The notes under the pieces: generated by a model | Databases searched by the model: none | What the model saw: the letters and a program-made list of their open reading frames with translations, nothing else | What the model was told of the DNA's origin: nothing | Shown: positions 3,005 through 11,381 of the stretch, in pieces | How positions within the stretch are numbered: the first letter of the stretch is position 1 | Layout: each line of letters starts with the position of its first letter | Program-made: the position numbers and the translations under genes | From: Octopus vulgaris | Taxonomy: Eukaryota | Assembly (NCBI GenBank): GCA_951406725.2 | Contig: OX597823.1 | Location: 25,234,001 to 25,298,000, forward strand | Length of the DNA: 64,000 bases | Direction: 5' to 3'

Positions 3005-3104
3005 TCAAACTAAAGGGTAACTAGCAAGGGACGCAATACTGCACATGTTATTACGGTTCCTAGCCATTTTTATATAACCACCATCACCCCAACGTTCACC
3101 CCAA
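3005..3104 (-). CDS. Cathepsin L-like gene A, terminal exon 7
   Basis: [36 protein letters not shown]; polypyrimidine + cag acceptor; exons 1-7 sum to 975 nt with no internal stop. Confidence 0.95.
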
Positions 3105-4413
3105 CTGAAACGAAAAGAAAATAACATATCAATAATAAATCATACATTTTTGACTTAGATTAACATTTTCTTATCAACGTAATAAATTAATAGTGTCCTA
3201 GTTGTGACATAGAATTCTGACAAGCCATAGTAGCAAATCATGATATTGGCTTAGAATTCTAACTGGTCATACTAACGTGTCATTATAAGGTATAGTGGTT
3301 ATAGTGTTCTGACGGGTCATAGTAACATGTCAGTGTTGTTGTTGTTCTTTGTTCCTTCTCGAGCCATGCCCGGCTCATAGGATATCAGAAGTAATACTGC
3401 ACTAACATAAAGACCAGATCTACTTCTACCTGCATTGTTTTTATTGTCTCAATATTTCAGTCAACTGATCTACCAGTACGGCATATACATTTTCCCATTA
3501 TTAATTTGTCCATTATTCAAACTTCAGCCGATAAAAGATTAATTGCTATGGTGAAAGCAAAGGCCAGCCATTTTGAATAGTAAATATATATAAAATATTG
3601 TCGATAAATATAGCACTCAGCCTGTTAGCATTCATCAACCAAAACATTAAACAATAATGGGTAAATATATATGCTACACTCGGTAATTGGAGTTAACGCT
3701 CTTGCTTGTTTTTAGATTTTAGACACAACTAGAGCGAAATTTTATCTACTAATAGCTTAGACAATCCCAGTTGATCAAAGTATTTTTTCAACTCACTATA
3801 TTACATACGTCAGATCCTAACGTAACTTAGAGTATGTTATTTTACTCTTTGATCATCAAATTCTAAACACCACCGAGGTTAACTTCTTTCCTCTGATTAT
3901 GGCATAAGTCTCAGTATTTTTGTAGCTAGAGAAATTATATTGGGACAGTCATGCTTTTATTAAGGGTTTTATAACAGTGCAATAAATGAGCTAAAAGCGG
4001 CTCTTTCTGGAATCGAAACTGCTTCATACACTCATCTATACAGTGTTTACTTCCTTCAAGACCACATTCATCATAAGATCAAAATTACATAAAATTTCTG
4101 TGCTTATGTCGTAAAACAAACAATGTATTAGTTTTCATTTTCTATAACAATTCCATTTATATTTAGGTCTATAAATGACACCAATACTTAACTAGCACCA
4201 TATTCCATCGACCACGGAAGATGAAAGCAAGGTTAATCCCAGCATGATAAGAACTCAGTTCATAGGGGGCCTTAATTAAATATCGCAAAACATTTTATCT
4301 GTCTCTAACAATTTTACTAGTCTACCGCATATGCGTCTGTGTGAATACATATGGATACAGACACTCAAATGGAGATGGGGAGAGGTAAAATAGAGAAGCA
4401 GGTTGTGATTTAC

Positions 4414-4679
4414 CTGTTTTTCACCAACCAGTAGTCCTGTCCATTTTCTGTTCCGTATCCAACCACCAAGATCCCATGGTTCAATTTGTGGTTACAATCA
4501 TCACTTACGTAAACGCCATGACTGTAGAATTGGAATGTAGTGGGACTTGCATCGATGGCAGCAGAGACCGGACCCACGTTGGCCACTGCTATTTGTAGTG
4601 CATGTTCTGACTTTAACACATCAACATAATTAGTATCAAAAGCGACTACTTTGCTCCTGTTATAACAACACATCTGTTG
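4414..4679 (-). CDS. Cathepsin L-like gene A, exon 6 (catalytic His and Asn)
   Basis: QQMCCYNRSKVVAF...VGPVSAAIDASPTTFQFYSHGVY...[25 protein letters not shown]; 266 nt with AG/GT boundaries. Confidence 0.96.
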
Positions 4680-5352
4680 CTATATATATTAAAAAAAATA
4701 GCGATATAGAAGTTAGATTAAACTGGTAAAACCAGTAAGCAAAAATTGCTTTTTAAATGTCAAAAAATTCTCGATGTCAGCAACAATTATAGAGCAAACA
4801 CACACATAAATACGCGCGCGCACACACACACACACATTCTAAAGTGTCTATGCTGTCATCAATGGATAAATAGTAACATGTATAAAAAGCAAATGGATTC
4901 AATAATGATAGTAAAGTAAATATTCGTCATTGAGTGCTGGAAGGATACTGTGTGGCGAAAGCATGTATCGCTGTAGAATCGCAAAGTACTCTCTTAATCG
5001 AGTTTATATGGCGTCATTGCATTTCATAGTGCTTGATATGAACAATCTTACATATAATAAAGCGCAATGTTTCACGTCAGTCACTCTGGTAGAGAGAAAC
5101 TAAAACAACAAACGGAGTAGGAGCGAATGATAGTCAGAGATGCTAAATCCAGGCGAACTGTAGAGAGACGTTTTGCTCTGAAGTCGCTGATATTTTAATC
5201 AAAATAAAATTGCAAATTTTTATCGTGAATTATATTTATTTTATCAATTTCAGATACACACACAAATATGAAATTAGTTATTAAACGCTTTTGCTTTCAA
5301 AATATTATCATTAACGCAACATTTATAACTTATATATATATATATATATATA

Positions 5353-8687: not shown

Positions 8688-9543
8688 TTAATTAGAGAAA
8701 AACCACTATTATGTAATTCAAACAATGATAGACATAAACCAAATCATAAAGAAAATATAAAATATATTATAAAACATATAACTAGATCACAAAAAGTACA
8801 AAAATGAATAAACAATATATAAGTAAAAAGACTACGTTTATTTAATTTTATTATTCTGTATTTATTATATGTGAACTAAAATCTAAAAGTATCAAGTGTG
8901 ATTGTTTTGTAAAATAGTTTGTAACATAAAATATTAGAATATAACTAGTGAAAAGATATTCTATAGTTTGTTAATGCTATTCTCAAAACTAAAATATATC
9001 TTCACAGATAAATACATTTTTCTATCTATTTACTCTATTTTTTTTACCTTAGGTTTTTAACATGATAAATATATTATAGACACCTGGTCCTACTTTTAAG
9101 TTTCAGATTTAGTTAACGGAGTTTCTTCTATAAGAACAATCATGATTTTATTTCTTTAAGAAATATTGTTTAATTCTATTTAATTATTTATTTAACTATT
9201 AATGTTATTATTGTTGACCTGAGGAGTGACTATACTTTTAAATTGAATTGTTTTTTCGATTAAAATTAAATTTAATTGTAATTCAAATTGAAGTTATAGC
9301 CACGAAACGTACGTAGTCTTTTTTATTATATATTGTTTATTCATTTTTTGTACTTTTTGTGATCTAGTTATATGTTTTATAATATGTTTTATTTTTCTTT
9401 ATGTTTTGGTTTAAGTCTATCATTGTTTGAATTACATAATAGTGATTTTTCTCTAATTTATATATATTATATATTTATATAGTGAAATTTGAATTTGTAG
9501 TAAATTGAATTTTTCCCAGTAAGTTTGGAGCTATACTCCCTAA
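8688..9543 (+). mobile_element. AT-rich hammerhead-bearing inverted-repeat element (copy ~61320-62128)
   Basis: ~150-bp inverted arms ~8690-8837 / 9311-9458; HHR at 9216-9318; (TA)n flanks; terminal sequence related to the 5353-6365 element. Confidence 0.7.
9216..9318 (+). ncRNA. Type I hammerhead motif with extended stem II (mutated copy at 61848-61948, GAAA>GAAT)
   Basis: gac-CTGAGGA-gtgactata...tatagccac-GAAA-cgtacg-TA-gtc. Confidence 0.7.
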
Positions 9544-11257
9544 TATATATATATATATATATATATATATATATATATATAAAGGCTAAAGAACCCCTTA
9601 AGGCACAAGTCTGGGCAAGGTCGTTTATGGAAGACTGGCAGTTGCCCATGCATACGAGCCTCCCCACACCACGCAACCGATGTTATCCAAGAGAAAGGCA
9701 AAGCTGACACAGCTTGGCACTAGTGACGCTGCAACTCATTTCTACAGCTGTGGGAAGAGGAACAACGTGAATTAAAGTGTCTTGCTCAAGAACACAATAC
9801 ATTGCCCGGTCCTGGAATCGAACTCATTACCTCATGATTGTGAGCCCGATGCTCTAACCACCGAGCCATGCGCCTTTATATATACATATATACATACATA
9901 CACACACACACACACACACACACACACACACATATATATATATATATATATATATATATATATATATATACTACTAATATAGGATGAAGTGTTTTTTACA
10001 GAAAAAAAATTCCATTAAAAAAATGTGGCAGCATATTAAAATACCTTTACGGTTAAAATTATAAACAACTTATAAATAAGAGCTAAAGAAAATTATTTCA
10101 ATGCCAATATGCTGATAACAGACTTTTAAATCCTCAATTTCCACATATTATTTACTCGCAACAGAAAAAAACACGAACTGAAATCGGGGAAAACTGGCCG
10201 ATAGATTAAGATATTTACATGCGCCCATGGAAAGAAGCCGAAGCAAAAATAATGAGTACATACAAGTACCCTAGATATATCTAAAAATAAAATTATTTGG
10301 CCAGCCCCAGCACAACGTGTTGACTGTTCTCCACTACAGGTTATAGTGGTTACCAGTCCCTATAGCGAGTAGTAATATGTCTACTACTAATATAGGATGA
10401 AGTTTTTTTACAGAAAAAAAAATTCCATCAAAAAATGTGGCAGCATATTAAAATACCTTTACGGTTAAAATTATAAACAACTTACAAATAAGGGCTAAAG
10501 GTCCGAAAACATACAACAGAATAGACTCCGCTTAAGGCATCTAATGTGCCTGCCAAGTAGTGGTGTTAAACGGGCTGACGGATTAAGTCTACCACTCAAG
10601 CAGACCAAGATGGAGTTTGAATTTAGAACATCAAGAGTTGGGAAAAATACCACAACGCTCTGATTCATATTTGCTGGTCTAATACTTTTAACTAGTACTT
10701 TATTTTTATTGGTCCCGGAAAGACGAAATTTAAAGTTGACCCCGGCGGGATTTGAACTCAGAATGCACTGCAAGGCATTTCATTTGCAAAGTTCTAACAA
10801 TCTTGGCAATTCATCGCTTTGGACATTAGTAAGTAGTTTTAGCAGTTTTATTGTGGTGGTGTGCCAGATTAAATATTTTGCAGCATTAAGTTTCATTTCT
10901 TTATGCTCAATATTGGTCAAGGTCAGGTTTGCCTTTCGTCTGTGCAGATTTTATAAAACACCACAGACCAAAGACTGTATTATCCTTCTTCCAAAAATGT
11001 TAAGCAGTGTACCAAAACTCTTATTAATAGCGCATCCGAGACACCGAAGCTAGGTTCTTTGGTGACGTAATATTTTTTACCTTATTCTTCTGATTTAATA
11101 ACAGGTCTTCCTTTAAGTCATAATGGAAAAATATAATTAAATTTTAACTTTAGAATACGAAACATATATTGCAAGTGAGAGGTGTTAAATGTCACAGTAG
11201 AACAATTTCATAAACAATTTCATACAGTGTGTAGAAAGTTAATATAAATGTATTTAC

Positions 11258-11381
11258 CGAATGATGAAGAGCAGTCTACAAGATTTTGTTCCGACAATGA
11301 AATCAGTTTGCCATATCTTCTGAAGATCTGTCCTTCAAGTGAACCAGTAGAAGAAAATGCCCAGCATGAACCACACATTTC
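11258..11381 (-). CDS. Cathepsin L-like gene A, exon 4 (catalytic Cys)
   Basis: [42 protein letters not shown]; tttcag acceptor, GTAAAT donor; 124 nt. Confidence 0.96.

Follow-up and report, generated by a model that had tools for sequence, protein, structure and literature searches.

Tandemly duplicated cathepsin L-like genes of Octopus vulgaris with enzyme domains that probably diverged by positive selection

Adaptive divergence of duplicated cathepsins is an established phenomenon. In soldier aphids, a venom cathepsin B is reportedly duplicated and shows a raised amino-acid rate, and its venom role is said to be demonstrated. The closest case to the one described here is the cathepsin L family of Fasciola hepatica (FhCL1-5), whose duplicated paralogs carry positively selected residues, several of them located in the cleft of the active site (Irving et al, 2003, as cited in PMC5917446). 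Here, we describe a pair of cathepsin L-like genes, A and B, from Octopus vulgaris, located in a 64,000-nucleotide stretch of OX597823.1 (positions 25,234,001-25,298,000; hereafter, the window) that we analyzed with 70 kb of flanking sequence added on the left and 130 kb on the right. This octopus pair adds a case to the phenomenon: it is probable (about 0.65) that the enzyme domains of A and B diverged by positive selection after duplication.

The octopus pair resembles FhCL1-5 in combining duplication with putatively selected residues, several of which fall in the cleft. Unlike the Fasciola enzymes, A and B come from a free-living cephalopod and are only ~2% apart; papain positions 67, 157, and 205 are the same in both, position 133 is the sole S2 change, and a difference in specificity is predicted from sequence. 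Compared with the aphid cathepsin B, A and B are cathepsin L-like, and a venom role, which we considered, finds no support here. The best solved-structure match is human cathepsin L (PDB 7w33, 1cs8; family C1A; expectation value 4e-103), which has the same domain order and catalytic residues, whereas the octopus enzymes carry Leu for Ala214 (S2 floor), Leu for Met161, and Asn for Asp162, and in B, Ala135 is replaced by Ser. Octopus cathepsin L clades 12-14 have been described (Pineda-Suazo et al, 2025; PMC12032550); in the supplement, group 14 holds the A/B-type proteins of Octopus sinensis, the Octopus bimaculoides copy, and one Octopus maya transcript, and group 13 the D-type proteins (see below). 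In its main text, the word "duplication" has no match, "selection" has three unrelated matches, and the locus and its rates are not treated. Within the literature searched, which stopped short of subscription journals and bioRxiv supplements, we found no paper on this locus and none that combines octopus cathepsins with positive selection and tandem duplication; among the titles listed for octopus cathepsin L, none concerns selection, six accessions are absent from the main texts searched, and PMC8976471 has no match to cathepsin in its text or five supplements.

Genome searches recovered exon 6 six times and exon 4 five times in the cluster on OX597823.1, which comprises, on the minus strand, five complete seven-exon genes (A, B, D, E, and F) and an orphan pair of exons 6 and 7 (fragment C). 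The splice products of A, B, and D exactly match O. vulgaris database proteins named cathepsin L1-like, and all three contain the Pfam domains PF08246 (I29) and then PF00112 (Peptidase_C1), above cut-off. The reading frames of A and B are open, with no stop or frameshift, and both proteins keep Gln19, Cys25, His163, Asn187, and Trp189. With regard to the ERF/WNIN propeptide motif, the spacing of R, W, N, I, and N matches human procathepsin L; the first position is Thr, and the strict pattern is unmatched. Judged by their domains and catalytic residues, A and B are cathepsin-L-like proteases of the papain family C1A, with predicted catalytic activity. Their exons are listed below in window positions, with A/B residue differences (A first):

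19549..19685, minus strand: gene A exon 1 (propeptide with a signal-peptide-like start; ATG present, GT at the donor; spliced product identical to protein P0093)
16137..16242, minus strand: gene A exon 2 (propeptide, I29 domain)
14860..15003, minus strand: gene A exon 3 (propeptide end, mature enzyme start, oxyanion Gln19)
11258..11381, minus strand: gene A exon 4 (catalytic Cys25; E/G20, M/K21, S/A30, R/K41)
7324..7421, minus strand: gene A exon 5 (S3/S1 loop; N/S62, N/T63, H/D66)
4414..4679, minus strand: gene A exon 6 (catalytic His; M/T, C/W, S/T, H/Q, and A/S at human 135)
3005..3104, minus strand: gene A exon 7 and stop (D/H, G/D, N/K)
73006-72870, 68940-68835, and 67675-67532 (window-equivalent), minus strand: gene B exons 1-3, outside the window
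63865..63988, minus strand: gene B exon 4
59976..60073, minus strand: gene B exon 5
56292..56557, minus strand: gene B exon 6
54853..54952, minus strand: gene B exon 7 and stop

Self-alignment resolved collinear blocks at an offset of ~52-53 kb, pairing -15 kb to 37.2 kb with 37.2 kb to 87.8 kb. The duplicated unit contains one complete A/B gene plus the final two exons of D, and fragment C has no upstream exons because the junction sits within intron 5 of D. The corresponding features are as follows:

1..37225, no strand: first duplicated unit (A and C), beginning ~15 kb left of the window
37100..37240, no strand: unit junction, gap-free, at a (CA)n/(TACA)n microsatellite in the copied intron 5 of D
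37226..64000, no strand: second duplicated unit (B and the 3' end of D), running on to window-equivalent ~87.8 kb
24400..29000, no strand: low-divergence tract between the units (13/4055 clean sites, 0.32%)
33428..33693, minus strand: fragment C exon 6 (gene D's 3' end, copied with the unit and left as an orphan)
31199..31301, minus strand: fragment C exon 7

The O. sinensis annotation has the same unit structure: it lists two proteins of A type, a single B-type and a single D protein, and two C-like fragments. For O. bimaculoides, the cluster listing contains one A/B-type protein. Since both types and the C-like fragments occur in O. sinensis, the duplication is real and older than the split of O. 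vulgaris and O. sinensis, which has been put at 2.5 million years (My) (10.1101/2023.05.16.540928). On the evidence of the self-alignment and the O. sinensis annotation, A and B are true paralogs from one tandem duplication of ~52 kb. The first ~13 kb of the second unit (37226-51600) is a rearranged array whose repeats measure 0.5-3 kb and are 72-95% similar; it also occurs left of the window, and a reverse-transcriptase insertion with a (TAAC)n tail, presumably LINE-like (long interspersed nuclear element), is confined to the first unit (34135-36636). Two O. vulgaris database models, P0095 and P0097, join exons 1-5 of D to exon 6 of fragment C across gene B, which may be a mapping artefact or genuine splicing of D onto the orphan 3' end.

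Exons 4-7 of A and B differ by 18 substitutions, 15 non-synonymous and 3 synonymous, as counted in an initial annotation of this sequence; all 15 residues listed there were recovered, with one change per codon. The length given there, 588 nucleotides, applies with the upstream acceptor of exon 6 (4679), with which the database proteins agree, and becomes 582 with the acceptor at 4673. These tandem acceptors, 6 bases apart in both A and B (4673-4679 in A), include or omit a Gln-Gln; the downstream AG of the pair is missing in C and D. In exons 1-3, 4 of 387 bases differ (1.0%), 3 of them non-synonymously. Sorted by domain, the mature enzyme accounts for 15 amino-acid differences and the prepro region for 3.

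Non-coding divergence was taken from chained local alignments with repeats and gap edges masked; a global alignment paired non-homologous insertions (1750-2300, 5500-6300) and was set aside. Clean non-coding sites of the unit differ at 361 of 28,151 positions (1.28%). Relative to this mean, exons 4-7 (18/588 vs 361/28151) are 2.4-fold more diverged (one-sided Fisher test, as for the next three comparisons; P = 0.0009), and the excess is 1.8-fold over introns 3-6 (P = 0.016) and 1.45-fold over introns 4-5 (P = 0.098). It is also seen against the 300-base exon flanks (P = 0.0017), whose divergence of just 1.1% (24/2110) indicates that exons 4-7 do not lie in older islands. Masked divergence of introns 1-6 is 1.16, 1.56, 1.43, 2.09, 2.17, and 0.80%, respectively, with intron 5 reaching 3.8% unmasked. 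The proposal that exons outpace introns therefore stands for exons 4-7 only and depends on the intron chosen, given exons 1-3 at 1.0% and introns 4-5 at 2.1-2.2%. It had been overstated, its two samples being among the quietest stretches: intron 6, credited with roughly a dozen substitutions in ~1.3 kb, has 15 raw and 10 after cleaning and is the lowest intron (0.8%), and the "about six" of positions 1-1400 are 6 in 1-1250, with 5 more in 1251-1500. Comparing C with D offered no usable neutral exon control, since the two differ at 3 of 369 bases, each time non-synonymously.

The excess of amino-acid change is concentrated in the mature domain. Using the substitution matrix of the unit's non-coding DNA, 5.98 changes are expected there and 15 are observed (Poisson P = 0.0014); scaling to introns 3-6 raises the expectation to 7.86 (P = 0.015) and to introns 4-5 to 9.85 (P = 0.076), an excess of ~1.5-2.5 times the non-coding prediction. 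Empirical nulls give P = 0.008 and 0.024, and a negative binomial P = 0.034. The prepro region is at the neutral level, with 3 changes against 3.1 expected. Depending on the baseline, the comparison of non-synonymous divergence (dN) with linked non-coding divergence yields P = 0.001-0.08 for the mature domain and P = 0.006-0.25 for the whole coding sequence.

The changes further concentrate at sites that vary within the family. As conservation reference we used 58 non-octopus homologues of 300-365 residues among 88 matches, and considered sites variable if <90% conserved. The 104 variable sites carry 12 of the 15 changes, which is 4.2, 3.2, and 2.6 times what the three baselines predict (P from 4e-5 to 0.003), and the concentration itself has P = 0.001-0.011. 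A codon site model written for this analysis was applied to A, B, and D only, and its outcome is driven largely by the long D branch. In the mature domain, M2a is preferred over M1a (twice the log-likelihood difference, 2dL, 7.5; P = 0.023), with omega (the ratio of dN to synonymous divergence, dS) of 5.2 at 14% of codons, and M8 over M8a (P = 0.006). This result is unmoved by a double-hit term, and 1 of 83 simulations under the null (M1a) scored as high. In the prepro region of the same three genes, a class with omega>1 is unsupported (P = 0.50).

Cleft positions were assigned by alignment to human cathepsin L and from the 25 subsite residues given in PMC9712828 (sections 3.2-3.5). Five of these (20, 21, 63, 66, and 135) differ between A and B, accounting for 5 of the 15 changes (P = 0.019). 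The initial annotation assigned the SAAID/SASID difference to papain position 133 in the S2 pocket; this position is given as an S2 residue in PMC5840727, and the change is Ala135 to Ser in human numbering. Positions 20, 21, 63, and 66 are among the cystatin contacts in a simulation study (PMC5072729, Table 1), and escape from inhibitors is thus as open an explanation as a change of substrate. A structure prediction from a 14-sequence alignment reached a mean predicted local distance difference test (pLDDT) score of 35.5 and was not used. At mature position 20 (window 11379-11381), A carries Glu in place of the Gly found in 95% of the 58 non-octopus homologues and in the two A-type proteins of O. 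sinensis; this is possibly a private or harmful allele. A also has an adjacent Cys-Cys (4663-4668), common to O. sinensis A, so that its mature domain has 8 cysteines where B, D, E, and F have 7, and the extra thiol is probably unpaired.

Of the 15 residue differences, 14 are present in O. sinensis, indicating that they arose before the species split and that both types have been kept since; between O. vulgaris and O. sinensis, each type differs by 1-2 residues. The mature domains of A and B are 15 residues apart, on a par with the distance from A to the O. bimaculoides copy (16), a species whose split has been placed at ~34 My (10.1101/2023.05.16.540928). Taking O. bimaculoides as the outgroup assigns 8 derived changes to B and 4 to A; at the other 3 differences, a third state is seen.

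In the mechanism that we propose, duplication would have freed one copy, mostly B, and selection would have favored changes at the S2 floor (Ala135 to Ser), in the S3/S1 loop (62, 63, 66), and on the primed side (20, 21). These changes may have altered substrate preference or escape from cystatin-type inhibitors, and patchy gene conversion would have kept part of the non-coding DNA alike. The initial suggestion of diversifying selection on protease specificity accordingly stands in part: the excess at variable sites, the subsite enrichment, the site model, and the conservation in O. sinensis speak for selection, but the baseline first used was the lowest available, and the change in specificity is a prediction. 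As to the setting, digestive or secretory proteolysis would be our guess from general octopus physiology. Cathepsin L1 is reported to be overexpressed in the digestive gland of Paroctopus digueti, with the paralog unspecified (PMC12607849), and the one O. maya transcript in group 14 was assembled from libraries of non-digestive tissues (heart, optic lobe, oviducal gland) and embryos (PMC12032550, section 18).

Several results weigh against positive selection. As the initial annotation anticipated, the N:S ratio is not significant (dN/dS 1.5-1.8, P = 0.24-0.38), and dS, at 3/~168 sites (1.8%), has a 95% range of 0.4-5.2% that spans the dN of 3.2%. For the whole coding sequence, the excess is unclear against the introns of A (P = 0.03-0.07) and absent against introns 4-5 (P = 0.25). 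Non-coding divergence is overdispersed (variance 16.9 and mean 6.4 per 500 sites), and the excess at family-variable sites disappears when the most diverged individual block of 500 sites serves as baseline (P = 0.18). Family-conserved sites show 3 changes (Gly20, Asn62, and Ala135 in human numbering) against 3.0 expected at the unit rate, a count that does not show purifying selection. Ten of the 15 changes lie outside the listed subsites; without the O. vulgaris-only Gly20Glu, the subsite count is 4 of 14 (P = 0.065), and between A and D it is 10 of 61, with no enrichment (P = 0.13). The bias of derived changes toward B (8 vs 4) is not significant (P = 0.19), and the split into mature and prepro regions, combined with several baselines, amounts to multiple tests.

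One alternative is relaxed constraint, under which redundant enzyme domains drifted near neutrality and the excess reflects chance variation added to a high local mutation rate. Such drift would account for the marginal excess under the intron 4-5 baseline, the non-significant dN/dS, the conserved sites changing at the unit's neutral rate, the Gly20Glu change and unpaired Cys of A, and a prepro omega that is also ~1. Against it, both copies lack stops and frameshifts, the changes concentrate at family-variable sites, each type is almost unchanged between two species, and the site model rejects the neutral M1a and M8a. We therefore regard relaxed constraint as unlikely.

Another explanation places the duplication further back, with conversion having homogenized introns and flanks; the baseline would then be too low, and the exons would show the true age with omega <=1. 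The 24.4-29.0 kb tract departs from the unit mean with P = 1e-10 and is likely a product of gene conversion or recent exchange. The unit mean is, moreover, no higher than about the reported O. vulgaris heterozygosity (1.22%), although the duplication predates the 2.5 My split. The low tract together with this mean points to conversion or exchange after duplication, making 1.28% too low a baseline; the 2.1% of introns 4-5 is safer, and the plain amino-acid count is then marginal. Contigs from four public DNA runs over 2880-5320, which may mix copies and drop variants and were counted from their listed letters, add a weak hint in the same direction: runs X2, X4, and X5, A-type in exons 6-7, have the B letter at 9 of 20 non-coding difference sites and at none of the 8 non-synonymous sites (P = 0.024; taking the single unlisted X4 letter as non-synonymous gives P = 0.12). 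In run X13, exon 7 is B-type and both types occur at 4267-4396. At 3246-3247, A and B of this genome both read TT where the contigs of all four runs read AC, possibly a small conversion tract or a polishing effect. Against an older duplication, divergence is not elevated at the synonymous sites of exons 4-7 (1.8%) or in the sequence directly beside them (1.1%), the A/B/D site model is independent of introns, and exons resisting conversion would themselves imply selection holding A and B apart. The initial annotation had named homogenized introns without omega>1 sites as speaking against selection; this applies in part, as the low tract suggests conversion. On balance, we find an older duplication quite improbable. 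That A and B began as or still are alleles, either because unequal crossing-over placed the forms of a balanced polymorphism in tandem or because assembly wrongly put two haplotypes side by side, fits the patchy non-coding divergence at heterozygosity level and, as a weak hint from contigs that drop variants, the A-type letters at the listed non-synonymous sites of exons 6-7 in 3 of 4 runs, but is very improbable given the O. sinensis annotation, the gap-free junction, and the presence of both types in X13.

Positive selection on the A/B enzyme domains remains our preferred reading, and comparisons within the cluster also speak for it. Between A and D, dN is 0.19 in the mature domain versus 0.11 in the prepro region (omega 0.87 vs 0.42), whereas the neighbors E and F show the reverse, which is the usual pattern (dN 0.06 vs 0.40). 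D orthologues from O. vulgaris and from O. sinensis show 8 mature and 0 prepro differences; pooled with the A/B changes, 23 of 26 are mature (P = 0.008), a count in which O. sinensis D may partly carry C-like letters. In a tree of 19 mature domains, A, B, and D sit on a long, fully supported stem, E/F-type sequences lie near Argonauta, and the B clade has support of 97/99. D has Arg in place of the conserved Gly67, as well as Phe69 and Ala161, and its mature domain is strongly basic, with 31 Lys/Arg versus 14 Asp/Glu; O. sinensis D keeps Gly67. D is the more divergent enzyme of the cluster. In each comparison of young copies, the enzyme domain has changed more than the propeptide attached to it. 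A, B, and D could represent an Octopus-specific protease lineage in a long arms race, for example with prey or parasite cystatins or a reproductive substrate. B would then be a new enzyme fixed within the last few My, kept distinct from A by selection against conversion and perhaps copy-number variable across the O. vulgaris complex; we consider this extended scenario rather unlikely. Just upstream, gene F is accompanied by ~3.5 kb tandem repeats, 99-100% alike (window-equivalent 168.6-178.6 kb), which may be a very recent duplication or an assembly echo.

If positive selection is the correct explanation, A and B would be a natural protease pair, 15 enzyme-domain residues apart, whose differences were probably chosen by selection. 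The pair would offer a compact test of which cleft positions beyond the classic 67/157/205 tune cathepsin L specificity or inhibitor escape, and it would point to a rapidly evolving group of proteases in an octopus that is farmed and widely studied and whose digestive enzymes are poorly resolved.

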